Assembly: GCA_049650865.1 (NCBI GenBank)
Contig: JBASAY010000211.1
Span: forward strand, 43,095-107,094
Length of the DNA stretch: 64,000 nt
Origin: Tunicatimonas sp.
GTDB taxonomy: Bacteria > Bacteroidota > Bacteroidia > Cytophagales > Cyclobacteriaceae
Direction: 5' to 3'
Shown here: in pieces, positions 7,810 to 23,258 of the stretch
Layout: every line of letters begins with the position of its first letter
How positions within the stretch are numbered: position 1 is the first letter of the stretch
Notes under the pieces: model-generated
The model's database searches: none
What the model was told of the DNA's origin: nothing
What the model saw: the letters and a program-made list of their open reading frames with translations, nothing else
Translations under genes and position numbers: made by a program

Positions 7810-8580
7810 TCAGTTCGTCTGCAAGTTTAGCACTACCGGGCAGTGGTCGGAGTGCATTGCCGAGGGAAGCACCGCCGCACCCACTAATGAATTTTGTAAC
7901 GCTTGGGAGGCCATATGGTAGTCAATGCGCCAGCCCAGGTTCTTGGCCCGGGCACCCGCCCGGTAACTCCACCAACTGTAGTTGTGCGGCTCATCGTTAA
8001 AGTAGCGAAAGGTATCGATGAACCCTGCCTCTAAAAATTGACTCACCCAGGCGCGTTCCTCAGGTAAAAATCCGCTACAATTTTTGTTCCTCACCGGGTC
8101 GTGGATATCAATGGGGCGGTGGCAAATATTGTAATCACCGCTAATGATTAAACGAGGAAATTCTTGTTTTAGGTAATCAATGTACTGATAAAAATCGCGC
8201 AGCCACTGCATTTTAAACGACTGCCGCTCGTCGCCAGAACTTCCGGAAGGCATATACACGCTCATAAGCGAGAAATCCGCGAAATCAGCCCGAATCACCC
8301 GCCCTTCCCGGTCGTATACGTCCAGGCCGCAACCGTAGGTAACCGCCCGCGGACGGTGCTTGGTAAGGATCGCCACCCCGCTGTACCCTTTGCGAGAGGA
8401 AGCTTCCATCCAGTACACCTGGTAACCAAGTGCAGCGAAGTCGTCTTCATTGATCTGATCCAGCGAAGCCTTTACTTCCTGGAGACAAACCATGTCCGGG
8501 TCTTCCGCAACCAGCCACGACAAAAAGCCCTTCCGGATCGCCGCCCGAATACCGTTTACGTTGTACGAAATAATTTTCAT
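7810..8580 (-). CDS. xth: Exodeoxyribonuclease III
   Basis: 256 aa. MKIISYNVNGIRA N-terminus, C-terminal SDHCPV, and the overall ExoIII/APE1 pattern. Confidence 0.95.
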   Translation of the reverse strand: MKIISYNVNGIRAAIRKGFLSWLVAEDPDMVCLQEVKASLDQINEDDFAALGYQVYWMEASSRKGYSGVAILTKHRPRAVTYGCGLDVYDREGRVIRADFADFSLMSVYMPSGSSGDERQSFKMQWLRDFYQYIDYLKQEFPRLIISGDYNICHRPIDIHDPVRNKNCSGFLPEERAWVSQFLEAGFIDTFRYFNDEPHNYSWWSYRAGARAKNLGWRIDYHMASQALQNSLVGAAVLPSAMHSDHCPVVLNLQTN

Positions 8581-8939
8581 CTGGTATCAATGTCTAACTC
8601 CAGCGCGAAGTAGTCGATGGTGTGCATCTTTAGTAGCTTTTCTTGTTCTAGCAGGTCAAAGTGAGGCAGCTTCTTGGTCGCTTTCCAGTGGGGCCACCCC
8701 TCGGCATCCACTCCCTCGAGTTGGTAAAAGCCGGACAGAGAAAGAACCCTGCAAACGGCAATGTGCATCAGGTCCTGCTTTTCTTCTTTCGAGAAGGTCT
8801 GCCGTCCCCTACCGAGTTCCTGCACGCCGATTAAGAAAAGCACGGCATTCAGGTCGGCGGGGCGCTTGCCGATGCGGGCTTCTAACTCGTTGAGCAAACC
8901 GTTCCACTGTCTTTCTAGCGATAAATCCTTCTGGTACAT
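8577..8939 (-). CDS. Hypothetical protein
   Basis: 120-aa ORF whose stop overlaps the xth start by 4 nt, suggesting co-transcription. No recognisable motif. Confidence 0.55.
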   Translation of the reverse strand: MYQKDLSLERQWNGLLNELEARIGKRPADLNAVLFLIGVQELGRGRQTFSKEEKQDLMHIAVCRVLSLSGFYQLEGVDAEGWPHWKATKKLPHFDLLEQEKLLKMHTIDYFALELDIDTR

Positions 8940-9068
8940 AGCAGTCGTTTAAGAAGATAACCCAACTCATTTCCCGTACTTCTTACCTCCGTGGTCTCTG
9001 AGGACAAACCCACCGCAATATCACTCGACGGTGGATTATCTTGGGATGTATCTACTATACGCGTCGTA

Positions 9069-9746
9069 ATGCTAAATGATTTTGTTTCGTTGTTATTTCC
9101 TCGCTGTTGCCTCATCAGTAATGCTCCGTTAGCCCGGGGAGAGCGGTACGTAAGCGTGGCGGCGGGGCAGGCGCTACCCCGCTTCGACCAGCAGCGCCCG
9201 CCCGAAGCAATTCGGCAGCAACTCTATACCTTTGCGCCGGTGCAGCACGCACTGGCCTATTATAAGTTTGCCCGGCACGGCGGCGTTCAACAATTGTTGC
9301 ACCACCTCAAGTACAAGAACTGCCCTGAGGTTGGGGAACTGGCGGGAATGTGGTTTGCCCACGCAATAGTGGACGCAGGATTAAAGGAAGCGTTTGATGC
9401 AATCGTGCCGGTGCCACTGCACCCCAGCAAGCGGCGGCGGCGGGGCTACAACCAGTGCGACTACGTAGCGAAGGGAATGGCCAGCGTGCTGGAGATCCCC
9501 TGGATACAGGATTCATTAATTAAAGTGAAACATAACCAATCGCAAACCCGAAAGAGTCGGTGGGAGCGCTCTGAGAACGTATCCCAGGGATTCGCGCTGC
9601 GAAACGCCGATGCGGTACAGGGCCGCCGGATACTCTTGGTAGACGACGTGATGACCACCGGCGCAACGCTGGGCGAAGGAGCCAAGGTGCTGCTAGAAGG
9701 AGGCGCCCAAGAAGTAAGTATCGCTGCACTGGCGGCGGTGCAGTAG
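9069..9746 (+). CDS. comF: ComF-family phosphoribosyltransferase-domain protein
   Basis: PRTase motif ILLVDDVMTTGATL near the C-terminus. ComF-like N-terminus MLNDFVSLLFPRCC. I prefer the internal ATG at 9069 to the track start at 8991. Confidence 0.8.
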   Translation: MLNDFVSLLFPRCCLISNAPLARGERYVSVAAGQALPRFDQQRPPEAIRQQLYTFAPVQHALAYYKFARHGGVQQLLHHLKYKNCPEVGELAGMWFAHAIVDAGLKEAFDAIVPVPLHPSKRRRRGYNQCDYVAKGMASVLEIPWIQDSLIKVKHNQSQTRKSRWERSENVSQGFALRNADAVQGRRILLVDDVMTTGATLGEGAKVLLEGGAQEVSIAALAAVQ

Positions 9747-9754
9747 CGCCAGCA

Positions 9755-10528
9755 TTACCACAGCAAGCCCAACTGGAAAGCGAAGAACAGCAAGATCATC
9801 AAACCAGCTACCGCCTTATTATCGCTCCGCATCGGAAGCAGCGCAAAGATAGCGCAGAGAATCAGAATCCAGGTGATGAAAAACCGATAGCCCTGGTACA
9901 CACCGTAGGCAGGTTTCACCCAGTACGTTCCCTGATCCCCAAACTCCGCCCGCAACAAAATGCCCAGTCCGGGCGTGGTTATCAAGGTAGCGCGATCGCC
10001 CGGCTTTACCCGAGTGATGTTTTCGTACTTAGCCGTCAGCATCCTCTGCCGAAAGAACACCTTATTGTACATACCAGTCATGGCCGCATGTCCGTAGGAT
10101 ATGGATACAACCTCATCGGGAGTTGCGCGGGGCGGCAATTGGTAGTCAACCATAAATACAAGTTGGGTAAGGGCTACCAGCGATACAATAACTACCAAAA
10201 TACGATTTACCTTGACGGTAGCTACTATCCGCCGACGCAGCATTTCTTCGGCTTCCTGCTGGGCAAACTGGCGGGCAGCGGCGCGACGGCGCTCTTGCTC
10301 TTGGGCGAAGGGGTCCGGTTGGTGGGCCGTAAAACTGCCGGTGGAAGGGGCATTAGGATCGGTTAGGTACTGATACGCCTCGGTAACCTCGATAAATCGG
10401 TCGTGGGCCGCCGGGTCGGGCGAGCGGTCGGGATGGTAGCGCTTTGCCAAACGGCGGTAGGCGCGCTTAATCTCTCGCGCACTAGCGGTTGCGGGCAGGT
10501 TGAGCACGCGCAGGTAGTGTTCTTTCAC
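9755..10528 (-). CDS. J-domain (DnaJ-like) membrane protein
   Basis: 257 aa. N-terminal J domain with the HPD motif (YRRLAKRYHPDRS). Hydrophobic helices later in the protein (ILVVIVSLVALTQLVFMV, FFITWILILCAIFALL, AGLMILLFFAFQLGLLW). Confidence 0.85.
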   Translation of the reverse strand: MKEHYLRVLNLPATASAREIKRAYRRLAKRYHPDRSPDPAAHDRFIEVTEAYQYLTDPNAPSTGSFTAHQPDPFAQEQERRRAAARQFAQQEAEEMLRRRIVATVKVNRILVVIVSLVALTQLVFMVDYQLPPRATPDEVVSISYGHAAMTGMYNKVFFRQRMLTAKYENITRVKPGDRATLITTPGLGILLRAEFGDQGTYWVKPAYGVYQGYRFFITWILILCAIFALLPMRSDNKAVAGLMILLFFAFQLGLLW

Positions 10529-10590
10529 TGGGCGAACAAAATTTCTTTATATTGCGTCTAAGCAAGAAACACCATTAACTCCAGAAAACC

Positions 10591-11766
10591 ATGAATGCAT
10601 ACATTGTGGGCGGATTGCGTACCGCCGTAGGAAAAGCTAAAAAAGGGGGATTCCGGTTCACCCGTCCCGACGACTTGGCCGTAGAAGTGATTCAGCACCT
10701 TACCAAAACTGTGGAAGGGCTCACTCCCGAATTAATTGACGATATGATTGTGGGCAACGCGGTGCCCGAAGCAGAGCAAGGCATGCAGATGGGCCGCATG
10801 ATCTCGCTGATGGCCCTGGGCAAAGAAGTGCCCGGCATGATTGTGAACCGCTACTGCGGCTCGGGCGTAGAGGCGATCAATATCGCTTCGGCACGAATCC
10901 ACGCGGGCATGGCCGACTGCATTATTGCCGGAGGTACCGAGTCGATGTCGATGGTGCCCATGATGGGCCACAAAACCGCGCTCAACTTCGAAGTGGCCAA
11001 GCAGCACCCTGAGTACTACACCAGCATGGGCCTGACCGCCGAAGAAGTAGCCAAAGACTACGACGTCTCACGCGAAGATATGGACGCTTTCGCTCTGCGC
11101 TCGAACCAGCGGGCGGTAGAAGCGATTAAAGAAGGCCGGTTCAAAGACGAAATTGTCCCGATCACCGTCAACGAAACCTACGTGGATGAGGAAGGTCGGC
11201 AGCAGGAGCGTGAGTTTGTAGTAGATACCGACGAAGGCCCCCGTGCCGATACCAGTATGGAAGCCCTGGCCAAGCTGCGCCCGGTATTTCGGCAGGGAGG
11301 CAAAGTGACCGCCGGTAACTCCTCGCAAACCTCCGATGGGGCCGCCTTCGTGCTGGTGATGTCGGAGAAACTAATGAAGCAGCTAAACGTGCAACCGCAA
11401 GCGCGCATGATGAGCTACGCGGTGGCCGGGGTAGATCCCCGCATTATGGGCATCGGTCCGGTAAAGGCTATCCCGAAGGCACTGGAACTGGCCGGACTGA
11501 AGCTCGCTGACATTGACCAGATTGAACTGAACGAAGCCTTCGCTGCCCAGGCGCTAGCGGTAGGCCGAACCTTAGACATTGATATGGACAAGCTAAATGT
11601 AAACGGCGGAGCCATCGCGCTGGGGCACCCTTTAGGTTGCAGTGGTGCCAAGCTAACCATCCAACTCATCAACGAAATGCGCCGCCGCGAGCAGAAGTAC
11701 GGGATGGTAACCGCCTGCGTGGGCGGCGGTCAGGGGGTGGCCGGAGTATTTGAGTTTTTGAATTAA
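10591..11766 (+). CDS. Acetyl-CoA C-acyltransferase (thiolase)
   Basis: 391 aa. Active-site Cys context [11 protein letters not shown], and C-terminal [18 protein letters not shown] and CVGGGQG. Confidence 0.95.
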
Positions 11767-11802
11767 GACAATTAGGAAGATTTTGTTAGACAATGAATGA
11801 AG

Positions 11803-11833
11803 CGGCAAAGCTACCAAAGGCTTTGCCGTTTTT
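11803..11833 (+). terminator. Putative rho-independent terminator after the thiolase gene
   Basis: 9-bp stem cggcaaagc / gctttgccg with an 8-nt loop, followed by TTTTT. Confidence 0.6.
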
Positions 11834-11900
11834 CGTTTTGTCCCGATATAGTAAGCATTCAAATAAGGGTTAAAAGGGCATCTAGTAAACTGACACGCTG

Positions 11901-12089
11901 TTACTTGGAGGTAGGAGCAGATGATAGTTTAGCGTATTCCCGTCTTTTGATCCGCCCTTTGTCAACCGCCTCCTGTAAGCCTTTGAATATTTCATCCATA
12001 GTCTGAACGTAGTCTTCCTCATCTTCGAAAAAACCCTCCTTAATTAGGATGGGGTCAACGTATTCCTCGGTTCTTTTCGTAGTACTCAT
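11901..12089 (-). CDS. Small acidic hypothetical protein (62 aa)
   Basis: ORF only, in an otherwise non-coding stretch and with no recognised motif. See the finding on a possible toxin-antitoxin remnant. Confidence 0.3.
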   Translation of the reverse strand: MSTTKRTEEYVDPILIKEGFFEDEEDYVQTMDEIFKGLQEAVDKGRIKRREYAKLSSAPTSK

Positions 12090-12371
12090 AAAATGTTATC
12101 CAGTTTCTGCGAGTGCATCGGTAAGGAGATAGCAAATACAACCGATCCTGTTCCAGTTTGAAAAACGTATTGTACACTTTAGCGAGACTTTGTTGATCTG
12201 ATTAACCCGGCCTATTTCTTCGTACTCCAAGCGATAGAGAATCTAGTTTGGTTTAATTAGCAATGGTAAAGAACAACATTCTAGGGCATTGTGAAAAATA
12301 TTACTAGCCATAGCTTATTTTCTAAATCTCCGTATTCCTGTTACCTTTAGCGGAAGTTTAGTCTCCGCAGT

Positions 12372-15300
12372 ATGCCCAAAGTCCTCACCTACCATAACCT
12401 TACCCACGGCGAACACTGGTTTCCGGCCGACCCCTACGGCAAACGACAAATCGACGCCATCAGCGACCCCGAGGGGGGCAACACCGAGCAGCCTCCTACT
12501 TCTATTCCGAGTCCGTTTGCGCGTATCGACCTGGTGCGCACCGCCTTTAAGAACATTGTGAAAGACCGTAAACTGCTGGGCAATAAAGTCGACCGGAAGT
12601 TAGTAGCCGAGTGCTTCGATGTAGGCGAAGTGTTTTTTAACGTAGAGTACCTTCAGGAAAAGACCCAGATCATCACCTGGGACCGTCGGCGCGATCTGGA
12701 GGCGTTGCTTACTTCGGCCAATCCCCAGCACCGTCGCCTGGGGGAGGTGCTTCAGCTGTACCTAGAACAGGATGCCGCTACCTACAACTTCGATCAGATC
12801 GACCGGCTGCATATCGTGCAGTATAACTACAAGGTAATCGGGGGAACCTCACCGGCCACCCTGTTCTTCTCCGCGCCCAATGATCTGTCCTTCGTGGATA
12901 TTCCGATGGAACGCAATCGCTTGTTTAGCAACGACTACCCGCCCCTGTACGCCCGCAGCGCCAGCTACCAGAAGTACTGGTACGGCTTGCTTCGGTTCTT
13001 TCAGTCGGCAGGCGGCACCGTGCCAGACTTTCGGGCTTGCTTTAGTGAGGTAGCCGAGTACCTGGATGCGAACCTCGAAATCTTACGCACCGAGCAACCG
13101 GTGCTCTACGAAGAAATCAACCAATTTACCCTAACCGATTTCTACGACCACTACGCCGAATTAGACACCGGCCAGTCGGGAGACTTGGTAAAGCTACTCG
13201 GTTACCCCTTGCGCAAGAAGAAGATCGACGTGGGTTCGGTAGCTACCTCGAGCGACTTCGTGATCCAATCTTCTAAATACCAAGGGAACACTCCCCCCCT
13301 GGTGCTGCAAAACCAGCTGAACAAACCCTACCGCTACGTAAACGATACCTGGGACAGTCACGTGGCGGTTCCCTACTGGGTAGATACACCGTTGGAAGAG
13401 CGAAAGTTGCCCGGCCAAGTGATATCGTACCCCTATCTGACGGTGAGCGACTTTCTGGAGCCGTATCTCATTCGGTTGGTGTACCCGGTAAACGAGCAGA
13501 AATTCTTCGACGGCAACGTAGGGCGAACCAAAGAGCAGAAGGGGTTCATCCTGCCCATAAAGCCTGCCTTCTTCGACTACTTCGACGTGGCGGATTTGCG
13601 GGGAAGCGTGCCCGGAGGCAAAAAGTTTTTCGAGATGGAGCCCCGGGCGGCCGGAGGGGTACGGGTAACGCTGCGCGTTCCGGTAAAGCAGGACTATATC
13701 ACGCTAGAGCGCATCTACCTCTCCTCTATCAGCGAGGGCGACGGTCTAACGCCCGACGAAGAAAATAACAAGGGAGTAGTGATTGACAGTCAGTTCGGTG
13801 TAACCCTCTATCCGTTTATCAAGATGCGCGGCAAGGCCGACCCGGCCCACTACCGGGTGCAACTCATCGACCGCGACGTAAGTCCCTACAACAAGCACCA
13901 CCGCTACCAACTGCGGTTCTTCCAGAACCAGGACAATCAGGAGGTCAAGATAGAAGCGCAGCAGCAGCGCAGTAACAAGCAGCTGGACGACCGGGCTACC
14001 TCGCAGTACTATGTGCTTGAGGATGAATTTGACTACATCCAGGTGCAGAATCAGGTGGCCCAGGGAATTATTATCCCGAAGTTCCCGGAGTACCACCGCG
14101 GCAACGATGCCTTTAGCTTCGCTATCGACTTTGGCACCACCAATACCCACGTGGAGTACCAGGTGAACGACCGCGACCCGCGCCCCTTCGACATCACCGA
14201 TGACGACGTGCAGATTGCTACGCTGCACGACCCTGAGTTTGCTGACGCCAGCGCCGACTTCGGGGGCAGCGGAGCCACCCTGATTCGGGATCTGATCCCG
14301 CAGGAGTTTCTGCCGCGTTACCTGGGACCGGGCTACGAGCACTACTTTCCGCAGCGCACCGTGCTGGGCGAAAGCAAGAACCTGGACCTGGAGCAGACTA
14401 CCTACGCCCTGGCGGACTTCAACATTCCTTTCGCTTACGGTAAGCGTCCCATCAACGGCAACGTGCGCATCAGCAGCGACCTGAAGTGGTCGAACTACAC
14501 CAAGAATACCGACGATCGGCGCCGGGTGGAAGCGTTCTTTGAGAACCTGCTGCTGCTCATTCGTAATAAGGTGCTGCTCAACCGGGGCAACTTAGCGAAG
14601 ACGCGCATTATTTGGTTTTACCCGTCGAGCATGCTGCCCAACCGGCGTAGCAGCCTGGAGAGCACCTGGACCAAACTGGTGCACCGCTACATTACCCCCG
14701 AGCGCGATCCGATTAAACTATCCGAGAGCATCGCTCCCTTCTACTTCTACAAAAACAAGATGGGGCGTAGCGCCGCCGACAAACCCGCCGTGGGCATCGA
14801 CATCGGGGGGGGCACCACCGATATCGTGGTGTTCCAGAACAACCAGCCCGTGCTGCTCACGTCGTTTCGCTTTGCGGCCAACGCCCTGTTCGGCGACGGC
14901 TTTAATGGTTCGGTGATCACCAACGGATTCGTAAGGCGCTATGCCGATCTCATCGACAAAACCCTCACGATCGTTGACCCCAATACCGCCGACTACCTGC
15001 GCGAGAACTCGCGGGAGATGATCAGCTTCCTGTTTGAACTAGAGAACAACGATCGCTACGCCAAACTGCTGCCTATTTCCTTTAGCAGCTTACTGAAGGA
15101 AGATGAAGATCTGAAAATTTTGTTTGTGGTGTTCTACGGTGCTATCATCTATCACCTGGCGCAACTGATGAAGGCGGCCAACCTGGCAATGCCCCGCAAC
15201 ATTTTGTTCAGCGGACGCGGTTCTAAGGTGATCAACATTACCGACAGCAACCTACGACTGGATAGCTTGACGGTGCTCACGCAGAAAATCTTCGAGAAAG

Positions 15301-15788
15301 TATTTCAGCAAAGCGCCTCGCAAATTGAACTGGTTCAGTACGAACGGCCAAAGGAGATTACCTGCAAGGGTGGGCTGCTGAGCGAGAATCCGGTAGATAT
15401 CGATGATATCAAAAAGGTGCTACTCGGGGCCGGACAACAGTTTGTTATTCCTGAGAAGGCCATCAAGTACCCGGACATCGACGACCGGACGCTTACTCGG
15501 GTAGTAAATGAGGTAGATCAGTTTCTTAAGTTACTGTTTGAAGTGCACGACGAGTACAACTTCTCGCACCATTTCGGGGTGAACCCTACTTACTTAAATC
15601 GCTATCGAGCCTGGCTAACGACTGATTTGATGGAGTACCTAAAATCCGGACACCAGATGAAACTCGATGAGCTAGCCGGTAATCAGAACGTAAACGTAGA
15701 GGAAACCCTGTTCTTCTATCCTTTGGTGGGGGGGCTCAACCGCTTAGCCTACAAGATTGCCACCGAGCTCAGCGAGGTAGAACAGTGA
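12372..15788 (+). CDS. Giant Hsp70/actin-fold (ASKHA) ATPase-domain protein with an uncharacterised ~580-aa N-terminal region
   Basis: 1138 aa with no signal peptide or TM. Phosphate-1 motif AIDFGTTNTHVEY (nt 14121-14159). Phosphate-2 motif VGIDIGGGTTDIVVF (nt 14790-14834). Adenosine-type motif ILFSGRGSKV (nt 15201-15230). Confidence 0.9.
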   Translation: MPKVLTYHNLTHGEHWFPADPYGKRQIDAISDPEGGNTEQPPTSIPSPFARIDLVRTAFKNIVKDRKLLGNKVDRKLVAECFDVGEVFFNVEYLQEKTQIITWDRRRDLEALLTSANPQHRRLGEVLQLYLEQDAATYNFDQIDRLHIVQYNYKVIGGTSPATLFFSAPNDLSFVDIPMERNRLFSNDYPPLYARSASYQKYWYGLLRFFQSAGGTVPDFRACFSEVAEYLDANLEILRTEQPVLYEEINQFTLTDFYDHYAELDTGQSGDLVKLLGYPLRKKKIDVGSVATSSDFVIQSSKYQGNTPPLVLQNQLNKPYRYVNDTWDSHVAVPYWVDTPLEERKLPGQVISYPYLTVSDFLEPYLIRLVYPVNEQKFFDGNVGRTKEQKGFILPIKPAFFDYFDVADLRGSVPGGKKFFEMEPRAAGGVRVTLRVPVKQDYITLERIYLSSISEGDGLTPDEENNKGVVIDSQFGVTLYPFIKMRGKADPAHYRVQLIDRDVSPYNKHHRYQLRFFQNQDNQEVKIEAQQQRSNKQLDDRATSQYYVLEDEFDYIQVQNQVAQGIIIPKFPEYHRGNDAFSFAIDFGTTNTHVEYQVNDRDPRPFDITDDDVQIATLHDPEFADASADFGGSGATLIRDLIPQEFLPRYLGPGYEHYFPQRTVLGESKNLDLEQTTYALADFNIPFAYGKRPINGNVRISSDLKWSNYTKNTDDRRRVEAFFENLLLLIRNKVLLNRGNLAKTRIIWFYPSSMLPNRRSSLESTWTKLVHRYITPERDPIKLSESIAPFYFYKNKMGRSAADKPAVGIDIGGGTTDIVVFQNNQPVLLTSFRFAANALFGDGFNGSVITNGFVRRYADLIDKTLTIVDPNTADYLRENSREMISFLFELENNDRYAKLLPISFSSLLKEDEDLKILFVVFYGAIIYHLAQLMKAANLAMPRNILFSGRGSKVINITDSNLRLDSLTVLTQKIFEKVFQQSASQIELVQYERPKEITCKGGLLSENPVDIDDIKKVLLGAGQQFVIPEKAIKYPDIDDRTLTRVVNEVDQFLKLLFEVHDEYNFSHHFGVNPTYLNRYRAWLTTDLMEYLKSGHQMKLDELAGNQNVNVEETLFFYPLVGGLNRLAYKIATELSEVEQ

Positions 15789-15836
15789 TAAGGTAATACC
15801 TATTGATCAGCCGCCAACATCCAACCCAAGCAATCC

Positions 15837-17090
15837 ATGCGCTATCTTAAATTCCCGCTACTGTTCGTGATCTTGCTAGCGAGCAGCTCGTTTCAGGCGG
15901 GCGTAATCCGCGAAGACTTTGCCCGATGGGTAGACTACGCCGCCTGGCGGGTGGTGGATGCGTACATGCAAGACTACGTGCGGCTGCGCCCCGACATGAC
16001 CGCCGAAAAGGAAGGGTATCGATTGTTCCAAGAAACCTACAACGCAGAAAATTATAGTCTATCAAATCCCCCCCCTAGCGAAGCGGTGCGCCTGTTTCTG
16101 GTCAGCCACGACTGGCGCGGAACCGCGCTCAACCTGTACGACCCGTTGGTTGAAACCAAAGAAGCGTACCAGAATGAGTGGAGCGCAGCACAAGCTGCTG
16201 AGGTATTGCAAGAACGCATTGCGGCGGTAAGCCCCGAAGCGCTGGGAGCCCAAAGCGACGCCGACTACACCACCCTATCCACCACGAAAGAACAGCTGAC
16301 TACGGAGATTACGTCCGGCCTCGGGCAGTCCGAAGCAACCGCGGATACCGCTACCGGAGCAAACGCTGCCGAAGTCGACGCTACGGCTCTACAGGAAGAC
16401 AACACCCGTGGATTTGCGCTGCCTACGGCTTCCAATAGTCAGGGCGCCACCAATGGCGGGATGTTTAGCTACGCTATCAACCCGATCTCACTGGGAGCGG
16501 CGGTTGTGCTGTTACTCCTGCTGCTTTACTTGTTTAAGATTATTAGGGGGTTAGACCAGCGGGTAGACCAGCACAGCAAGCGCATTGAAGACCTTACCTC
16601 TCGCCTGCTCATGAGAAAGGACCCGGTATCGGCTGAGGAAGCGAAGCAGCTAAAGTCTAGGATTGCTAGTTTAGAGGAGCAACTGAAGAAGTTAACTGCT
16701 GTTCCACCGCCGCCCGCAAGACGCAGCCCCCCTCCTACCCCCCCTGCCCCCAAGGCAAAGGAGTACTACCTGTCCACTCCCAACCAAGACGGTACCTTTA
16801 ACGCTAGCTCGATGTCAGAGCAGTTTCGTCCGTCAGCCTCGGTGTACAAATTTATGGTTACGCAAAAAGATGGAGCTCACTGGGCGGAGTTTAGCGTAGC
16901 CGATGATTCGGAAGCGATGAAGGATGCACTGAGTTCACCTAATAGCTACTTGGCGCCCGTGTGTGAGAGCGAGAATGCCTACTCGCCGGGCGCTAAGCGT
17001 ATCGTAAACGTCCGCCCGGGGCGGGCGGTGCGGCAGGGCGATAAGTGGATAGTGAAATCCGAGCAGAAAGCCCGCATCCGGTATGAGTAG
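15837..17090 (+). CDS. Bitopic membrane protein: periplasmic N-domain, TM, coiled coil, Pro-rich linker, C-terminal globular domain
   Basis: 417 aa. Signal-like N-terminus MRYLKFPLLFVILLASSSFQA. T/A/S-rich spacer. TM ISLGAAVVLLLLLLYLFKII followed by basic residues. Heptad region (AEEAKQLKSRIASLEEQLKKL). PPPPARRSPPPTPPAP. A ~105-aa C-terminal domain. Confidence 0.8.
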   Translation: MRYLKFPLLFVILLASSSFQAGVIREDFARWVDYAAWRVVDAYMQDYVRLRPDMTAEKEGYRLFQETYNAENYSLSNPPPSEAVRLFLVSHDWRGTALNLYDPLVETKEAYQNEWSAAQAAEVLQERIAAVSPEALGAQSDADYTTLSTTKEQLTTEITSGLGQSEATADTATGANAAEVDATALQEDNTRGFALPTASNSQGATNGGMFSYAINPISLGAAVVLLLLLLYLFKIIRGLDQRVDQHSKRIEDLTSRLLMRKDPVSAEEAKQLKSRIASLEEQLKKLTAVPPPPARRSPPPTPPAPKAKEYYLSTPNQDGTFNASSMSEQFRPSASVYKFMVTQKDGAHWAEFSVADDSEAMKDALSSPNSYLAPVCESENAYSPGAKRIVNVRPGRAVRQGDKWIVKSEQKARIRYE

Positions 17091-18528
17091 CGTAGAGACG
17101 TTTGCGGTGGTGTGCCTGGGGGCAGCCTGGCTGGCCCAAGCGTGGTACGTTCGCCGCTTGCTAGAGCAGTTGCGCCGGTTGCGGCAGAGTGTTCCCCGCC
17201 CCGAACAACTGAGCGTGCGCCCCGTGCTCATTCCTACGGCCGCGCTAGCGCAGACCCCAGCCGAAGAATTGGCCCAACAGTACGGTACCCAACCCCCTGC
17301 CCCGCCCGCCGCTACGCCAACCATTAAAGTGTCGCTGCTGCACACCGAAACCCCGGCCGCTTCAGAACACACGCTAACCACCGCTCTCAACGGTTACTTC
17401 ATTCGTAGTCGGGGAGCGGTGGTGGACTTTACCCTGGTTCAAAATTTAACCGAGCGGCACATTCAGGTGAGTCAGCAAGACCTACGACTACAGGCGGGGT
17501 TTCCCTTGCTCATTGGGCTCGTCGCGGTGCTACTGGCGAGTACGGTGGGTCTGCTGTTTTTACCCAACCTGCCCGCGGCCCTCATCGACCGGATTGCTTT
17601 GGCCAGCACGGCCGCCCTATTTTTTAGCGGAGTGAAGTGGACGGCCGGGGCGGTACTCACCGGGGCGCTTATTACGATGATAACCCTGGGTTGGGCGTAT
17701 CCCCGCACCCGGGGCGAAGTGCTACGGCGCAAGAATAAGTTGCTTAGCCTCGTGCAGATCGAGCTACTACCTACCCTGTTTCAGGACGCCACCCACAGTT
17801 TGCAGCTACTGCAGACCAGCATTACGAGCTTCCAGCACGGTTTTGCCGATAGCATTGCGTCGCTACAGGAGATGGTTAGCCGCAACTTTGATACGTTGAA
17901 GGCGCAGGAGCGTATTGCTGAGGCGCTGCAGAAAGTAGACGTGATGAAGCTGACCAACGCCACCGTAGATATGTTCGAGACGCTCGACCGAAGCGGTAGC
18001 GAACTGAAAAAGTTTCGCGACTACCTGTCTGAAATGAACCACCTGGTGGCCAGCACTACCGCCCTTAACGAAAAGGTGAACCAATTTCTTTACCGTACCG
18101 ACCATTTGGAAACCATTGCCGAGAAGGTGAAGGGAACCCTAGACCAGAACGATCGCCTGCACCACTTTATCGCTTCGCACTTTTCGGAACTGGAAAGCCG
18201 GGGGCACTTGATACAGCAAGCGGTAGTGAAAGTAGACGATGTACTAGACAAAAGCCTGGGCGAACTGATGGAACACACCCAACACAAGATTCGGGCGATC
18301 CGCGACTTGTCGGCGCAGGAAGAAAATCAACTGCTCAAAACCTACGAAGAAAATAAGCACGTATTTGGCAAGCTAGCCCGCATTGATGACCTACACCAGA
18401 ACTTTACTGCGTATAAGAGCCAGAATCTGGAAACCCAGCGGCAGATGCTGGAACAACTTCAAATCCTTACAGAACATCTGACTAAAGCTGGCGGCGGCGG
18501 ATTCCTCAAAAAATTATTTGGTTCGTAA
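17083..18528 (+). CDS. Polytopic membrane protein with a long C-terminal coiled-coil tail
   Basis: 481 aa. The start overlaps the upstream stop by 8 nt (ATGAGTAG). TM1 FAVVCLGAAWLAQAWYV followed by RRLLEQLRRLR. Pro-rich QPPAPPAATP. TMs FPLLIGLVAVLLASTVGLLFL and ALFFSGVKWTAGAVLTGALITMITLGWAY. About 260 aa of helical, heptad-like sequence. Confidence 0.8.
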   Translation: MSSVETFAVVCLGAAWLAQAWYVRRLLEQLRRLRQSVPRPEQLSVRPVLIPTAALAQTPAEELAQQYGTQPPAPPAATPTIKVSLLHTETPAASEHTLTTALNGYFIRSRGAVVDFTLVQNLTERHIQVSQQDLRLQAGFPLLIGLVAVLLASTVGLLFLPNLPAALIDRIALASTAALFFSGVKWTAGAVLTGALITMITLGWAYPRTRGEVLRRKNKLLSLVQIELLPTLFQDATHSLQLLQTSITSFQHGFADSIASLQEMVSRNFDTLKAQERIAEALQKVDVMKLTNATVDMFETLDRSGSELKKFRDYLSEMNHLVASTTALNEKVNQFLYRTDHLETIAEKVKGTLDQNDRLHHFIASHFSELESRGHLIQQAVVKVDDVLDKSLGELMEHTQHKIRAIRDLSAQEENQLLKTYEENKHVFGKLARIDDLHQNFTAYKSQNLETQRQMLEQLQILTEHLTKAGGGGFLKKLFGS

Positions 18529-18551
18529 GCGAATTTGGTTAATGTTGCGTT

Positions 18552-19301
18552 ATGCGAATGATGAGAGACTGGATCTGGACGCTCGCGATTTCGTGTTTAC
18601 TTTCTGGTTGCCAGAGCTGCTCGCGCTCGGCCCAAAAAGCCCAGGAGCATCATCGGCCCACGGTAAACAAGACCCTTTCTGAAAAGGTGTTAGTAGACGC
18701 CCCAACCCCTTCTATCCCCCTTAATGATGTAGTGCCGGTACGAGAAGAATCGCTGGCCGAAATTATCGCCCGGGCGGAACCCTGCGTTTTCGTGGTGCAC
18801 ACCTATAACCGCAAGGGCAAACGTATTGGCCAGGGAACGGGGTTCTTTATTGAGGATTCGGGCGTTGGGGTGAGCAACTATCACGTATTCGAGAAAGGAA
18901 GACGCTGGCAGATTCGCACGACCGATGGGCAAACGCACGCGGTAAAGCGGATCATGTACCAGAGCAAGAAGTTCGACTACGTGGTGTTCCAGGTAGACAC
19001 CCGGCAGCGCATGCCCTACCTTTCTTTGGGCGACATGGCACCCATGAAGGGAGAAGATATTGTAGTGCTAGGCAACCCCCGGGGGTTGGAAAGTACCGCC
19101 TCCCGCGGAATCGTTTCGTCTATTCGCGACTACCGGGGGCAAGAAAGCGCAATCATTCAGGTGGATGCCGCTATCTCGCCAGGGAGCAGTGGCAGCCCGG
19201 TGATGAACCGGCAAGGGGAAGTGGTTGGCATTGCTACTATGAAGGTGAACGGCTGCGAAAGCTGCAATTACGCATTCAACATTAATCTGCTCAACCACTA
19301 A
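18552..19301 (+). CDS. Trypsin-like (S1/HtrA-like, no PDZ) serine protease lipoprotein
   Basis: 249 aa. Lipobox LLSGC. Putative triad contexts: His in VSNYHVF (nt 18882-18884), Asp in FDYVVFQVD, Ser in ISPGSSGSPVMN (nt 19173-19208). Confidence 0.85.
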   Translation: MRMMRDWIWTLAISCLLSGCQSCSRSAQKAQEHHRPTVNKTLSEKVLVDAPTPSIPLNDVVPVREESLAEIIARAEPCVFVVHTYNRKGKRIGQGTGFFIEDSGVGVSNYHVFEKGRRWQIRTTDGQTHAVKRIMYQSKKFDYVVFQVDTRQRMPYLSLGDMAPMKGEDIVVLGNPRGLESTASRGIVSSIRDYRGQESAIIQVDAAISPGSSGSPVMNRQGEVVGIATMKVNGCESCNYAFNINLLNH

Positions 19302-19341
19302 CTGCGCTGCCCCCCGTAGCTACCTTACGTCTCCCCCTGCT

Positions 19342-19917
19342 ATGATTCTACTCAGGACAATCAGTATTGTCTTATGCTACATTGGCTTCAGTTTTCCTAG
19401 TACGGCCCAATCGTTCCGGGCTCACGCGGTACTGGGACTCAATGCCGCCCAGATCGACGGCGACGGGTTATGGGGTTATAATCAAGCAGGAATTCTGGGG
19501 GGCGTAAAGGTTGCTCTTCCTTTGTCCGATGCCATTTCGGCCCAAGCGGGGATGCTCTACAGCGCTAAGGGGAGCCGCTTTAGTGAGTTTGAGCCATTCT
19601 CTATCTGGCGACTTACCTACCTAGAGCTTCCGGTAGAGGTACAGGGGCGTTTGGTAAATAAGGTGTATCTATTCGGCGGATTGTCTCCAAACTACCTTAT
19701 TAAGGCCCAGCAGGAAAATGCCTCCGGTTTCACCGCCGATCGTTCTAGCTACCGATCCTTTGATTTGTGCTTCACCGCCGGGATTCTCTACCGGTTTGCC
19801 GACAATGCAGGCGTGCAGGCCCGGGTGAGCGATGGATTACGGAGCAGCAACAATTTTCAGTACCTACGTAATAGGGTGCTTAGCTTCGCGTTGGTGTACT
19901 ATTTCTCAGACGAATAG
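19342..19917 (+). CDS. Small outer-membrane beta-barrel protein (porin-family-like)
   Basis: 191 aa. Signal peptide ending STAQS. Alternating hydrophobic beta-strand pattern and aromatic-rich C-terminal strand LSFALVYYF. Confidence 0.7.
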   Translation: MILLRTISIVLCYIGFSFPSTAQSFRAHAVLGLNAAQIDGDGLWGYNQAGILGGVKVALPLSDAISAQAGMLYSAKGSRFSEFEPFSIWRLTYLELPVEVQGRLVNKVYLFGGLSPNYLIKAQQENASGFTADRSSYRSFDLCFTAGILYRFADNAGVQARVSDGLRSSNNFQYLRNRVLSFALVYYFSDE

Positions 19918-20001
19918 CACTTTTTTTTGCTCAATGAGCGTAAACAGCAAGCAGGATGTAAGAATTATGCCATTTAATTATACTTTCATATAATTTATTT
20001 G

Positions 20002-20009
20002 TACTTTTG
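20002..20009 (+). promoter_or_regulatory. Candidate Bacteroidota -7 promoter box (TAnnTTTG)
   Basis: TACTTTTG lies 26 nt upstream of the ATG at 20035, in an AT-rich 117-nt gap. The -33 element is unclear. Confidence 0.35.
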
Positions 20010-20034
20010 AAGAGTAATACTTCATAAAGTACTC

Positions 20035-22269
20035 ATGAAAGATATAATAGTTTATTCAATCAACAGGCAAACTCGCAGCTTAGCGAGTTGCCAAAAGGGC
20101 GCCCATCGGTCTATTCGGCACCTATTGTTAACCCTTTTGTGTTTGGCGGGACTGGTCAAGCAGACCCAGGCGCAAACCGACACCATCCACTGGATGCCCC
20201 CGGTGTGGGAGAACCGAGGGGCCACTACCCGGGTGCTTCCGGTGCAGATGCAGATTACCACAGAATTTGCGTCTGCCCAAGTTAATGTCACCCTCTCTGA
20301 TGGGACTCCTATTGCTTCTCAAACCATTATGGCCGGTCAGCCCTGGATATTTCCGCTCAGTACTGTGCAGGGAATGACCTTTGAGGCTAACGTAGCTGAG
20401 AAGGACAAAGGGATTCTAATCCACTCAGACGTACCCGTGCGGGTCTACTGCCAGGGCGTGTCCCGGGCAAACCAGTACTTTGTTACCCTAAAGGGAAGGC
20501 ACGCGTTGGGAACTGAGTTTTACGCGGGTTCACAAACCCTTATTCGCGACGGTGCGTGGCCGGGTACTGACTTCGGTCACTACGACCTGCACTTCGTTTC
20601 GGTGATGGCTACCGAAGACGACACGAAGGTTACCATCACTCCCCCTAATGGAATCGTACTGTTCGGAGGAAACCAGCCCGTGGAAGTTATCCTCAACAAG
20701 CACGAAACCTATTTGGTCCGCAACACCTCATCAAAAGGGCCTAACTCTGATAACGTGGCGAACAACTTGACGGGCTCGCACATCGAGGCCAGTAAACCCG
20801 TAGCGGTGCTGTCGGGAGGGCAGCACCAGAAGCTAATAGATTCGAAGGATGCCGACGCGGGCGTCGACCAGTTGGTTCCCCTGCGGGGCAACGGCTTCTA
20901 CTCTATCGGCCGCCAGTACGTGGTTATCAAAGGGTCAACCGAGAATATTAGTGCGGTAAACCCCGACTACGCTACCATTATTGGCACGCAAGACCAAACG
21001 GACATCTACGTAGACGGTGACCCGACTCCGGTGGCTACCATCGGCGCCGGAGAGTATTATAACTACGTGCTACCCGGACAAGCGAGCGATATTGGTACCC
21101 CCCACTACATTGAAACCAGTAAGGAAGCGTATCTGTACCATTTCTCAGGCATCCGCCGCCAGGAACTCGGTATGGTGCTCGTACCATCGATTGAGTGCAC
21201 CGGCAACCGCTACATCGAGTACACCAAGCTAGGCGATACCGCCTACCACAACGTGGTGCATATCACGGCTCCCATCAAAGCCTTTGAAACTTCTACCAGC
21301 CTTACCATCAACGGGCTGCCCTACACCAACTTCGACGCAACAGTTAGTCCGGTACCGGGCCGCAACGATTGGGCAACCATCAGCTTCGGTGAGGCAAAGT
21401 CGCTAAGTAACCACGCGCCCCTGCCCGAAAACATCGTAGTAGAATCGAACGTATCGTTTCACCTGTCAATCATCGCGGGCAACCGGTATGGTGCTTCCTA
21501 CGGATACTTGGCCGGATTCACCGCATCGCTAGAGGTGCTAGACCCCCGCGACCTGCTGCCTACCGATATGTACGTAGTGGATACGGTGATGCAGGGTGCC
21601 ACGCACGAGCACTGCCTGGAACTGGCAAGTTGCGACGAAGAATCAAAGATTGTGGGCGTAGCCCCAGGAAGCCACACCAAAGAGGCGGAACAACTCACCG
21701 CCCGCTGTCTCACCTATACCGCATCAAGCGACTACGTGGGTGGCGACACGCTGCTAGTAACGGTAAACAACCGCGCGGGTATTCCCCGCCAAGTTCGGCT
21801 TATCTATCAAGTAGAGGCCCTACCGAAACAGGATAGCGTAGTGGTAGAAGATTCGGTAGTTACCACGCCTCCGATGGTAGTGGAAGCCCCCACCCCGCCG
21901 GATACGACAATGGTGAGTGAAGAAGGTCAGGAAGAGGAAGAAGTAGAAGAACAAGAGCAAGAAACTGAGTGTGACCAGGAACTGGCGATTTCAGAGGGTT
22001 TCTCACCGAACGGCGACGGTAATAACGAAACGTGGTACATCCGCGGCATTACCTGCTACCCCAACAACGAGGTAACGGTTTACAATCGCTGGGGAAGCTT
22101 GGTGTACCAGACCGCCGCCTACGACAACGTGACCCGGCGGTGGAACGGCCGAACCCAGGGCGGAGCGCTAGCAAGCAACCGCGGCCTCCCCTTCGGCACC
22201 TACTACTTCATCGTGAACCTGGGCGACGGTAGTCCGCTTCGCAAGGGCTACGTAGTGGTCCACCCGTAA
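20035..22269 (+). CDS. Secreted T9SS cargo protein with a type-B (gliding motility-associated) C-terminal sorting domain
   Basis: 744 aa with a signal peptide. The last ~90 aa (GFSPNGDGNNETWYIRGI...VYNRWGSLVYQ...WNG...LPFGTYYFIV) fit the type-B CTD pattern. Acidic linker EEGQEEEEVEEQEQE. The N-terminal ~500 aa possibly resembles an IgGFc-binding-like beta domain (unverified). Confidence 0.85.
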   Translation: MKDIIVYSINRQTRSLASCQKGAHRSIRHLLLTLLCLAGLVKQTQAQTDTIHWMPPVWENRGATTRVLPVQMQITTEFASAQVNVTLSDGTPIASQTIMAGQPWIFPLSTVQGMTFEANVAEKDKGILIHSDVPVRVYCQGVSRANQYFVTLKGRHALGTEFYAGSQTLIRDGAWPGTDFGHYDLHFVSVMATEDDTKVTITPPNGIVLFGGNQPVEVILNKHETYLVRNTSSKGPNSDNVANNLTGSHIEASKPVAVLSGGQHQKLIDSKDADAGVDQLVPLRGNGFYSIGRQYVVIKGSTENISAVNPDYATIIGTQDQTDIYVDGDPTPVATIGAGEYYNYVLPGQASDIGTPHYIETSKEAYLYHFSGIRRQELGMVLVPSIECTGNRYIEYTKLGDTAYHNVVHITAPIKAFETSTSLTINGLPYTNFDATVSPVPGRNDWATISFGEAKSLSNHAPLPENIVVESNVSFHLSIIAGNRYGASYGYLAGFTASLEVLDPRDLLPTDMYVVDTVMQGATHEHCLELASCDEESKIVGVAPGSHTKEAEQLTARCLTYTASSDYVGGDTLLVTVNNRAGIPRQVRLIYQVEALPKQDSVVVEDSVVTTPPMVVEAPTPPDTTMVSEEGQEEEEVEEQEQETECDQELAISEGFSPNGDGNNETWYIRGITCYPNNEVTVYNRWGSLVYQTAAYDNVTRRWNGRTQGGALASNRGLPFGTYYFIVNLGDGSPLRKGYVVVHP

Positions 22270-22300
22270 TCAAACTTCTCAGCATTAAGAAAAGCAAGCT

Positions 22301-23257
22301 ATGTATAAATTCTATATCCATTCACTTATTCATCGGCGGTTCGTCAGCATGCTACTCGTGGCTGCGCTGACTACCACCGCTGCCTACGCGCAGCAGCAGG
22401 CGATGTTTACCCAGTATATGTTTAACGGATTGGCCCTGAATCCCGCCTACGCAGGTAGTCACGAAGCAATCAGCCTTACGGCGCTGGGCCGCGAACAGTG
22501 GAGCGGCCTGCCGGGCAGCCCTAGCACCCAGACGTTTGCCGCCCACGCCCCCCTCCGCTTTAGCAGAGCTTCGGTAGGGCTGTTGCTCTCGCGCGATGAC
22601 CAGGACGTATCGCGGCAGCACGGCGTGTTTGCTTCCTACGCCTACCGCATTCCGGTGGCGAAGGGGCAGCTAGCCCTGGGGTTGCAGGGAGGATTTACCC
22701 AGGCCCGCACTGCCCTGACCTCACTGCAGATCGTGACTCCGGGAGATGCTCCGGACCCCACTTTCGGTCAGGACCTCAATACTGGTCTGTTGCCTAACAT
22801 AGGAGCAGGATTATACTATCATACTGAACGCTTCTATCTAGGCTTGTCGGTTCCCCAACTGATTGACCACCAGCTAGAGCAGGAGGGAGCGCTCACCGAG
22901 CAAGCACAATTGGTAAGGCACTACTTCCTAACCGGCGGCTACGTTTTTGATCTAAATCCATCTCTGAAGTTTAAGCCCAACTTTCTGATAAAATCTGTGC
23001 CGGGCGCTCCGGTAGAGGCAGATTTTAACGCCAACCTGCTGATTCGTGAAACCCTGTGGGTAGGGCTTGGCTACCGCTCGTTCGACGCGCTTAACGCACT
23101 GGTGCAGTTGCAGATCAGTCCGGCCCTGGCGGTGGGTTACGCCTACGACTATACGGTGAGCGGACTACGCGAAGTGCAGTCAGGCTCTCACGAGCTAATG
23201 CTTAACTACACCATCAGACTGTCTAAAGAATCTGTTTTGTCACCCCGATACTTTTAA
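22301..23257 (+). CDS. PorP/SprF-family type IX secretion system membrane protein
   Basis: 318 aa. Signal peptide, then the hallmark QQQAMFTQYMFNGLALNPAYAG. Confidence 0.9.
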   Translation: MYKFYIHSLIHRRFVSMLLVAALTTTAAYAQQQAMFTQYMFNGLALNPAYAGSHEAISLTALGREQWSGLPGSPSTQTFAAHAPLRFSRASVGLLLSRDDQDVSRQHGVFASYAYRIPVAKGQLALGLQGGFTQARTALTSLQIVTPGDAPDPTFGQDLNTGLLPNIGAGLYYHTERFYLGLSVPQLIDHQLEQEGALTEQAQLVRHYFLTGGYVFDLNPSLKFKPNFLIKSVPGAPVEADFNANLLIRETLWVGLGYRSFDALNALVQLQISPALAVGYAYDYTVSGLREVQSGSHELMLNYTIRLSKESVLSPRYF

Positions 23258-23258
23258 T

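Follow-up and report, generated by a model that had tools for sequence, protein, structure and literature searches.

The 64,000-nucleotide (nt) stretch of the Tunicatimonas sp. assembly GCA_049650865.1 analysed here (contig JBASAY010000211.1, positions 43,095 to 107,094 of the forward strand; herein the window) carries five tightly packed genes, A to E, the first of which encodes a very large protein of predicted actin fold. Comparison with related loci reveals that A-B-C(-D) once formed the distal half of a conserved, horizontally mobile Bacteroidota operon and has become detached from the rest. The chances appear evenly balanced that the A family marks an unrecognised, phylum-wide envelope machine, in which a tubulin-like GTPase and a giant actin-fold ATPase, mostly under a Zorya/MotAB-type 5:2 motor, would control exported proteases and nucleases. 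Open reading frame (ORF) calling places the five genes exactly where a first-pass annotation, made from this sequence alone, had put them:

12372-15788, plus strand: gene A, 1138 amino acids (aa)
15837-17090, plus strand: gene B, 417 aa
17083-18528, plus strand: gene C, 481 aa
18552-19301, plus strand: gene D, 249 aa
19342-19917, plus strand: gene E, 191 aa

The spacing agrees as well: 48 nt between A and B, an 8-nt overlap of B and C, 23 nt between C and D, 40 nt between D and E, and 117 nt after E. To define the conserved neighborhood we searched species-representative genomes with a profile of A, which gave at least 573 encoding loci. They come from Cytophagales, Flavobacteriales, Chitinophagales, Sphingobacteriales and Bacteroidales and, beyond the Bacteroidota, from Balneolaceae and Leptospiraceae. 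ORFs were called and clustered at 80 loci (numbered L001 and so on), of which 66 had enough flank upstream of A and 60 downstream. The common order, on one strand, is U3-U2-U1-A-B-C-X6 followed by exported proteases or nucleases, with the following typical products:

U3, ~500 aa: lipoprotein
U2, ~147 aa: small membrane protein
U1, ~496 aa: putative tubulin/FtsZ-like GTPase
A, ~1148 aa: giant actin-fold ATPase
B, ~410 aa: bitopic membrane protein
C, ~520 aa: MotA/ZorA-like protein
X6, ~204 aa: MotB/ZorB-like, predicted peptidoglycan binder
X7, ~177 aa: retropepsin-like lipoprotein
X8, ~173 aa: SNase lipoprotein

Upstream of A, U1 is present at 61, U2 at 57 and U3 at 58 of the 66 loci; downstream, B is found at 58 of the 60, C at 46, X6 at 36, X7 at 26, D at 11, X8 at 9 and E at 5. 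The junctions are tight (medians: U3-U2, 6 nt; U2-U1, 19 nt; U1-A, 6 nt; A-B, 4.5 nt; B-C, -8 nt; C-X6, 2 nt), and the B-C overlap is kept in 42/50 loci. U3-U2-U1-A-B is thus the universal core, with C and X6 as a frequent module, and A-B-C is a genuinely conserved unit, predicted to be translationally coupled. The 3′ end varies: a retropepsin-like protease, an SNase, an EEP nuclease or the trypsin-like D may follow, all of them hydrolases with a signal peptide or a lipoprotein signal. Consequently, the cluster cannot be maintained as the self-contained five-gene unit it was first taken for, since D and E are infrequent and the U3-U2-U1 half is encoded elsewhere; linkage to A homologues holds for B and C, and for D at only 11 of the 60 loci. 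An accidental adjacency of five unrelated genes is nonetheless hardly credible. E, and less so D, are not conserved partners outside close relatives, so that chance could account for the position of E; for A-B-C it is refuted by an order, spacing and overlap conserved across classes and phyla.

The window, L001, L002, L003 and L007 are the only loci without U3-U2-U1 upstream of A, where a thiolase gene stands instead. A tblastn search of the 64-kb window detected no homologue of U1 to U3 or X6 to X8 anywhere. The exact sequence of protein A is on record as the hypothetical protein WA958_19700 of a Tunicatimonas sp. metagenome-assembled genome (MAG), and two partial U1 proteins, WA958_22110 and WA958_11285, share its MAG prefix. 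On the 6.26-Mb contig of L002, A lies at ~1.635 Mb, a solitary U1 at ~1.985 Mb (~350 kb from A) and purK-purE-U3-U2 at ~2.53 Mb (~540 kb beyond), distances that assume identical coordinates in the ENA and NCBI copies of the contig. The order purK-purE-U3-U2 recurs on a 656,979-bp contig, equal in length to the contig that carries an A protein of the window's 90% cluster. Three other Cytophagales loci (L004, L006 and L015; A 64 to 68% identical) retain an undivided purK-purE-U3-U2-U1-A-B-C-D, which places the three-way split in the window lineage: the ancestral operon has evidently been broken there into purKE-U3-U2, U1 and A-B-C-D-E, as judged from gene order. U1, U2 and U3 are intact in the sister genomes. 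Past the solitary U1 of the window clade come a conserved 141-aa ORF and, in L083, also a Fic-domain gene (L083, 11576-12815; L081, 11059-11484); in L081 a DDE transposase fragment lies near the solitary U1.

Alignment of the split-lineage loci defines one further feature upstream of A:

12318-12371, plus strand: 54-nt conserved block, directly 5′ of the A start codon

The block is nearly invariant in the window, L001, L002, L003 and L007, and sequence further upstream is not alignable. The block is a candidate promoter or 5′ leader of A, probably gained after the operon split. It holds TACCTTTA, a near match to the Bacteroidetes -7 motif TAnnTTTG, from which we infer a possible -7 element. 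In L001 a 277-aa ORF lies just 5′ of A (10001-13411) and a 350-aa ORF between A and B (14530-15801); neither is present in the window, L002 or L007, and they are possibly a mobile insertion.

The A family comprises 2101 clusters at 50% identity, 1030 of them at E < 1e-30. Among the best 150 of the 2101, nearly all members are ~1100 to 1200 aa long and align end to end, a few being truncated or extended at the N terminus. Modelling and conservation divide the protein into three parts:

A residues 1-50 (12372-12521, plus strand): strongly conserved N-terminal peptide, predicted unstructured
A residues ~51-580 (12522-14111, plus strand): alpha/beta region, then beta-sandwich domains, with no recognisable relatives
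A residues ~581-1138 (14112-15788, plus strand): predicted actin/ASKHA-fold ATPase domain, from Foldseek matches and invariant motifs

An AlphaFold2 model of A, built from 58 homologues, has a mean predicted local distance difference test (pLDDT) score of 80. A Foldseek search of the PDB with the C-terminal half retrieves MreB, actin, ParM, MamK and the Hsp70 nucleotide-binding domain (E 2e-9 to 6e-7; probability 1.0; template modelling [TM] score to the target 0.45 to 0.55), the best neighbor being MreB (E 2e-9). Three motifs are invariant in the 58 homologues: phosphate-1 (DFGTTNTH, 586-593), phosphate-2 (DIGGGTTD, 810-817) and adenosine (FSGRGSK, 946-952; F946-SG-x-GS-K952). The predicted fold of two RNaseH-like subdomains, together with these nucleotide motifs, assigns A to the ASKHA/actin-fold superfamily. 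By sequence, no Pfam, NCBIfam or PADLOC family scores above threshold, sub-threshold Pfam FtsA and Ppx-GppA matches fall on residues 802-866 around the DIGGGTTD segment, and a 14-sequence profile finds no match in the PDB beyond that motif. The first-pass label of a giant Hsp70/actin-fold ATPase is therefore right as to the fold and imprecise as to Hsp70: the nucleotide-binding fold alone is common to both, the neighbors are MreB, actin and ParM, and there is no substrate-binding domain. A was likewise rejected as an Hsp70 chaperone proper, with no match to Pfam HSP70 or NCBIfam DnaK and MreB first among its structural neighbors.

The N-terminal 584 residues were also modelled separately (pLDDT 82). 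Searched against PDB entries to April 2026, this region matched only generic Ig-like sandwiches (TM score ~0.12, best E 5e-4) and nothing resembling ZorC or ZorD. Its first 50 residues are among the most conserved of the protein (W16, I27, P33, G35, T43 and P46 to A50 are invariant in the 58 homologues) yet are predicted to be disordered, with pLDDT < 50 for residues 1-45 in both models; we infer that they may be a partner-docking peptide.

The gene preceding A in the undivided operons, U1, encodes a putative tubulin-like GTPase. Its matches to Pfam Tubulin_2 (E 1e-5 to 2e-5) and Tubulin (E 4e-4 to 7e-4) are below gathering thresholds, and PF13809 is precomputed on many U1 homologues. The invariant segments GIGGTG, GNPNIGS and SIFGGTGAAGFP align with the T1, T3 and T4 loops of FtsZ, the FtsZ sequence used being approximate, and the sole PDB match of the U1 profile is CetZ (E 1.3). 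For U3, U2, B and the N-terminal half of A, no relatives of known function were detected in the families and structures searched; a von Willebrand factor A (vWA) domain, suspected in U3 from ENSGSMDGY...ISD, found no support in Pfam, precomputed Pfam or PDB profile searches. Profile searches of A, B, C, U1 and U3 against the PDB returned only motif-level or coiled-coil matches.

C and X6 are predicted to form a Zorya/MotAB-type stator unit with a long tail, a reading that follows from the family matches of both. C has a transmembrane region at residues ~1-215 followed by a predicted cytoplasmic tail of ~260 to 265 aa that matches only coiled-coil proteins. The first-pass annotation had described this layout correctly and had left the protein anonymous; the latter no longer applies. 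Nineteen of 39 family members match Pfam MotA_ExbB (best E 7e-6), the Chitinophaga orthologue (L017) matches PADLOC ZorA2 at 1.6e-4, and the C profile has a weak PDB match to TolQ (E 0.28), so that C is in all likelihood a diverged membrane protein of the MotA/ExbB/ZorA family. The window copy itself has no hidden Markov model (HMM) match to MotA_ExbB (Pfam) or ZorA (PADLOC). X6 matches ZorB1 (PADLOC, 3e-15) and has an OmpA-type domain; its plug/transmembrane region contains an Asp-bearing FTDLMT motif, which we take to align with the MotB region holding the conserved transmembrane channel Asp.

In the window's family-level clade, C has FPLLIGLVAVLL where other C proteins have the near-universal PLYLGLMGTMLG, and X6 is absent, in the window by tblastn and throughout the clade. 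Across loci the GLxGT motif and X6 are both present in 35 and both missing in 9; the motif occurs without X6 in 2 and X6 without the motif in none. Loss of the motif together with the co-absence of X6 makes it unlikely that window C is an ion channel, and its conserved tail and continued constraint suggest that it acts as a scaffold. Variants that dispense with the module altogether are seen in Spirosoma (L032, L038, L042, L044, L048 and L069), where U3-U2-U1-A-B is followed by X7 and a ~470-aa WG_beta_rep protein (X12), without C or X6.

These losses raise the question of whether the window cluster is a decaying or re-purposed remnant in which A to D no longer work as the ancestral system, and we consider this highly unlikely. 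The operon is in three pieces, X6 is gone and C has lost GLxGT. Decay also does occur in the family: in a Polaribacter MAG (L020, about 8300-16500), inserted ORFs break both U1 (one ORF of 353 aa, on the opposite strand) and C (two ORFs of 296 aa around it) into two ORFs each, which looks like insertion sequence (IS) insertion into a decaying system. Against this, all five window ORFs are intact, as are U1, U2 and U3 in sister genomes. The ratio of nonsynonymous to synonymous substitution rates (dN/dS), computed against two relatives whose A is 90% identical, is 0.04 for A, 0.09 to 0.11 for B, 0.11 to 0.14 for C, 0.04 for D and ~0.1 for E, values that are approximate because dS is near saturation. 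Low ratios for all five ORFs indicate that A to E are real, constrained genes under purifying selection. Moreover, the X6-less, motif-less state is common to a family-level clade that keeps the operon undivided (L004, L006 and L015), which points to an old, stable variant and not to recent decay.

B has a signal-like segment at residues 6-24 and a transmembrane segment at ~218-240, followed by a coiled coil, a Pro-rich linker and a conserved C-domain, so that hydropathy and conservation bear out its earlier description as a bitopic inner-membrane protein. The N-domain, predicted to be periplasmic, varies among homologues. The C-terminal domain of ~110 aa (nt about 16749-17090) is the sole part conserved family-wide, with P315, C376, G395 and W404 invariant, and has no Pfam or PDB match. 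The order of charged/coiled region, Pro-rich linker and globular C-domain past the transmembrane segment resembles that of ZipA, by analogy only.

The descriptions of D as a lipoprotein trypsin-like serine protease and of E as a small outer-membrane beta-barrel are both upheld. D matches Trypsin_2 (E 1e-27) and has a lipobox (LSGC, residues 17-20) and the full set of trypsin motifs (NYH(111)V, FD(142)Y and GSS(213)GSP); it has no PDZ domain and no type IX secretion system (T9SS) signal. An HtrA/DegP identity was rejected, as D is only 249 aa long, lacks PDZ and matches by the protease domain alone (100 bits against a cut-off of 416). The loci with D 3′ of the system include the distant Saprospiraceae L045 and Pedobacter L064, and it also accompanies copies on mobile elements (L088, L089 and L091); D looks like a lineage-restricted, recurrent accessory and a candidate output component. 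E matches OMP_b-brl_2 (E 2e-13), of the 8- to 10-strand type. All five loci counted with E 3′ of the system are genus-level relatives, and outside the window E directly follows D only in L001, L002, L003 and L007. L004, L005, L006, L008 and L015 have an E-like gene 5′ of the system and in the opposite orientation, adjoining purK in the two loci whose flank is resolved (L004 and L015); E is absent from every other lineage among the loci compared. An E-like gene thus adjoins the system throughout the Cytophagales clade, at opposite ends and on opposite strands: upstream in undivided operons and after D in split ones. Its membership in the system is doubtful, and we regard it as a clade-specific neighbor.

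The recurrence of secreted hydrolases could also mean that the machine is an export, uptake or cargo-loading apparatus, in which the NTPases and the stator-like unit power the delivery or activation of hydrolases for scavenging, DNA uptake and processing, or antagonism. Every one of the variable 3′ genes (D, X7, X8 and the EEP nuclease) specifies a hydrolase with a signal peptide or lipoprotein signal, the parts of the system extend across the envelope, and 5:2 motors energise secretion and gliding in Bacteroidota (GldLM). Even so, this reading is improbable: no secretin or outer-membrane channel is conserved with the system, E being clade-restricted; D lacks a T9SS signal; the core U3-U2-U1-A-B often occurs without any hydrolase gene; and no component resembles PilM, PilN or PilO or parts of type II or type IV secretion systems (T2SS, T4SS).

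Several lines of evidence bear on mobility. Among plasmid records there is one A relative, on the 1.77-Mb second replicon of Prevotella sp. oral taxon 299 F0039, where U3-U2-U1-A-B stands without a stator. Six IMG/VR contigs carry the system, and the flanks of two, L088 and L092, were inspected. The L088 copy comprises U3-U2-U1-A-B-C-X6, a second MotB_plug protein, D and an SNase fragment, and has a relaxase plus tyrosine integrase at one end and further integrase genes at the other; L089 and L091 have the same gene series. A copy of the L088 type is best described as cargo of a predicted integrative mobilisable element. The second MotB-like gene of L088 (14734-15486; MotB_plug, E 7e-6) comes right after X6 and is followed by the D-like trypsin protease. 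The core in L092 adjoins genes for phage tail fibres and baseplate, in what looks like prophage-adjacent chromosome. A phage origin of the system was rejected: 50,697 phage genomes contain no relative of A, the L088 copy is element cargo and L092 is prophage-adjacent.

The surroundings of the system are otherwise unremarkable. A sample of 148 flanking proteins from diverse genomes, with no matched background, was mostly housekeeping, with a few type I/II restriction-modification components, one Cas1 and two transposases; without a proper background, the restriction-modification and Cas1 genes give only a weak hint of defence. Next to the window cluster, the reported upstream gap of 282 nt holds only when a minus-strand ORF of 62 aa at 11901-12089, which matches no family, is counted as a gene; otherwise 605 nt separate A from the thiolase gene. 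Those 282 nt are AT-rich, as had been noted (38% G+C against ~55% locally). Just past the thiolase gene is a terminator-like hairpin with a 14-bp stem (11799-11832). Promoter-like boxes do exist in the 117-nt gap after E (19967-19994 and 20021-20048), at a frequency no higher than chance: the region contains 7 sigma-70-type boxes against 5.6 ± 2.4 expected from shuffled sequence, and a promoter and terminator scan found nothing above chance, the sigma-70 model not being apt for Bacteroidota. An Rfam scan of 11700-20100 matched no family.

The gene two places upstream of A (9755-10528, minus strand) encodes a membrane protein that begins with a DnaJ domain (Pfam E 1e-17) and ends in hydrophobic segments. 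This gene keeps its place in genus-level relatives alone, so that a connection with the A system is improbable, and an Hsp70/J-protein pair was rejected for that reason and because A matches no Hsp70 model. Downstream (20035-25448, plus strand) is a T9SS-type trio: an IgGFc_binding plus CHU_C cargo protein (744 aa), PorP/SprF (318 aa) and a TPR, PD40 and OmpA protein (729 aa). The trio likewise lies 3′ of E in L001, L002 and L007.

The products of A to D have the predicted locations first proposed for them, spanning cytoplasm, inner membrane and periplasm, and the system may form an envelope-spanning assembly. In such an assembly, B and C in the inner membrane would present the B C-domain and the ~40-nm coiled-coil tail of C to the cytoplasm. 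These parts would recruit or regulate A and U1, in the case of A possibly through its disordered N-terminal peptide. Nucleotide-dependent assembly or conformational change of A and U1 could then be coupled, via the periplasmic domain of B, U2 and U3, to exported hydrolases such as D. In full versions a C5-X6(2)-type unit would act as an ion-driven, wall-anchored sensor or motor as in Zorya, and in the window genome C would serve solely as a scaffold.

What such a machine is for can be stated only tentatively. The first-pass reading of a trans-envelope NTPase module is upheld in part, and none of the results speaks against the roles it suggested, signalling, defence or surface remodelling. The reading we favor, with some reserve, is a nucleotide-driven sensor/effector machine of Zorya-like logic that serves in defence or conflict, surveying the envelope for invaders, and not in housekeeping. 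It is suggested by the ZorAB-like module (ZorAB has been shown by experiment to sense invasion; PMC11946911), carriage on an integrative element, the patchy cross-phylum distribution and the variable nuclease and protease genes. A number of observations weigh against the mechanism or the role. The tubulin assignment of U1 depends on sub-threshold HMM scores and motifs, and hhalign of U1 with the single approximate FtsZ sequence gave a probability of only 1.3%. The core U3-U2-U1-A-B occurs without the stator module in 14/60 loci and in Prevotella F0039, so that Zorya-like sensing cannot be the essence of the system. The hydrolases are exported here and cytoplasmic in Zorya. PADLOC matched no core protein; the sampled flanks are mostly housekeeping, those of the window being thiolase, J-domain and T9SS genes; and intactness after scatter over ~0.9 Mb is unusual for defence islands.

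Some of the same observations would fit a physiological role better. The machine could be an accessory cytoskeletal or membrane-remodelling device, with U1 and A acting like FtsZ and FtsA, B as a ZipA-like tether and C/X6 as a TolQR/MotAB-like energiser linking inner membrane to wall, the hydrolases remodelling the envelope (vesicles, shape, surface turnover). Consistent with this, the tubulin-like and actin-like genes adjoin at a median of 6 nt, B is ZipA-like in its order past the membrane, the C profile weakly matches TolQ, and the same role has been proposed for Tubulin_2/FtsZl1 operons with OmpA-like genes (PMC2875224). Flanks are mainly housekeeping, purK-purE synteny is stable in the family-level clade, all parts were kept after the operon scattered, and the core is under strong constraint. 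This role is nevertheless on the unlikely side: the distribution is patchy and of low prevalence, and the system has crossed phyla and travels on an integrative mobilisable element. SNase and EEP nucleases would be unusual instruments for membrane remodelling, and there is no significant homology to FtsA, ZipA or Tol proteins.

Whether envelope surveillance or remodelling is nearer the truth, the family has wide reach: more than 2000 clusters of a conserved actin-fold protein of ~1150 aa are annotated merely as hypothetical. A fixed operon pairs an actin-like with a putative tubulin-like NTPase outside cell division, and most versions add a Zorya-type stator, whose sole characterised role is the sensing of phage invasion. 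The system, if this is borne out, would be either a new bacterial immune system switched by cytoskeletal polymers or a new accessory cytoskeletal organelle, and solving it would show what 5:2 motors can be coupled to. Interest is higher for the family as a whole than for the window's reduced copy. The window lineage is at the same time a natural experiment, since an operon split in three, with its stator partner lost and its genes still constrained, separates motor-needing from motor-free parts. Cultivable carriers (Chitinophaga silvisoli, Spirosoma luteum DSM 19990, Flavobacterium akiainvivens, Pedobacter sp. Leaf41 and Prevotella sp. oral taxon 299 F0039) make the role of the system directly testable.

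The combination had at first been noted as matching no described system, and family libraries, the defence catalogue and the searchable literature indeed hold no matching system. An actin-like/tubulin-like/stator operon in Bacteroidota is described neither in the family and defence catalogues nor in the literature reached by a full-text search, which excludes most subscription-journal papers. Within the limits of that search the system is new as a system and has no described counterpart, though its recognisable parts belong to known superfamilies. As a known defence system it was rejected, PADLOC giving nothing for A, B and E and only generic trypsin-domain or coiled-coil (LmuB) matches for D and C. 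A magnetosome-like MamK/MamE/MamO set was discarded too: D matches MamE and MamO by its protease domain alone, at 34 to 59 bits against cut-offs of 800.

PilMNOPQ offers a similar compartment order, running from an actin-fold protein in the cytoplasm through two inner-membrane proteins to a lipoprotein and a protein of the outer membrane. There is, however, no homology to Pil components, and the small barrel E is no secretin and no conserved companion of the system; a PilMNOPQ/T2SS-type apparatus was rejected because A to E match no PilM, PilN/O or secretin model in Pfam or NCBIfam. The divisome (FtsZ-FtsA-ZipA) together with Tol-Pal is alike in its parts, by analogy: NTPases of tubulin-like and actin-like type occur together with a bitopic tether, which has a Pro-rich linker and a globular C-domain, and with a TolQR/MotAB-type peptidoglycan-bound energiser. 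It differs in that no component has significant similarity to FtsA, ZipA or Tol proteins, A has an extra N-terminal region of 580 aa, and the system is accessory and mobile.

Two predicted systems are also comparable. Kaur et al. 2020 described conflict systems combining tubulin and HSP70 homologues (PMC7159879), in which NTPases of the tubulin and Hsp70/actin superfamilies are co-encoded with membrane components and peptidases, as here. Those systems are defined by a DO-GTPase and GAP1, occur in Firmicutes and Actinobacteria and have HSP70 with GrpE and DnaJ; as the DO-GTPase and GAP1 are absent, we rejected this identity. Around FtsZl1 (Pfam Tubulin_2), Makarova and Koonin 2010 predicted systems for membrane remodelling that include vWA, OmpA-like and GTPase genes (PMC2875224). 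These share a Tubulin_2-type GTPase encoded with membrane or periplasmic proteins, often of the OmpA family, are likewise patchy and were never characterised experimentally. U1, however, has ~490 aa and lacks the coiled coil and helical C-domain of the ~1000-aa FtsZl1, U3 has no detectable vWA domain, and the operon has no P-loop GTPase gene. The FtsZl1 lists and neighborhoods of that study include no A-like protein and none of the genera carrying U3-U2-U1-A-B, and Bacteroides caccae FtsZl1, of 913 aa, has a different gene context. With the defining components (large FtsZl1, vWA and P-loop GTPase) absent, an FtsZl1-centred operon was rejected as the identity of the system.

Among the closest known systems is Zorya, in which ZorA5B2 is a proton-driven, wall-anchored motor whose ~70-nm tail passes the invasion signal to ZorC and ZorD (PMC11946911). 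No equivalent of ZorC, ZorD, ZorE, ZorF or ZorG is found here by HMM (PADLOC; A, B, U1, U2 and U3) or by fold (A). The C tail has ~265 aa, against roughly 70 nm for that of ZorA; the stator module is dispensable, being absent in 14/60 loci; and the window has no ZorB and has lost the channel motif of C. On the other hand, the C family, by the matches of its other members, is of MotA/ExbB type with a long coiled-coil tail like that of ZorA, and the MotB/ZorB-like X6 is the next gene in 36/60 relatives. The operon logic, a membrane motor with soluble partners, is that of Zorya, with a putative tubulin-like GTPase and a giant actin-fold ATPase as the partners.

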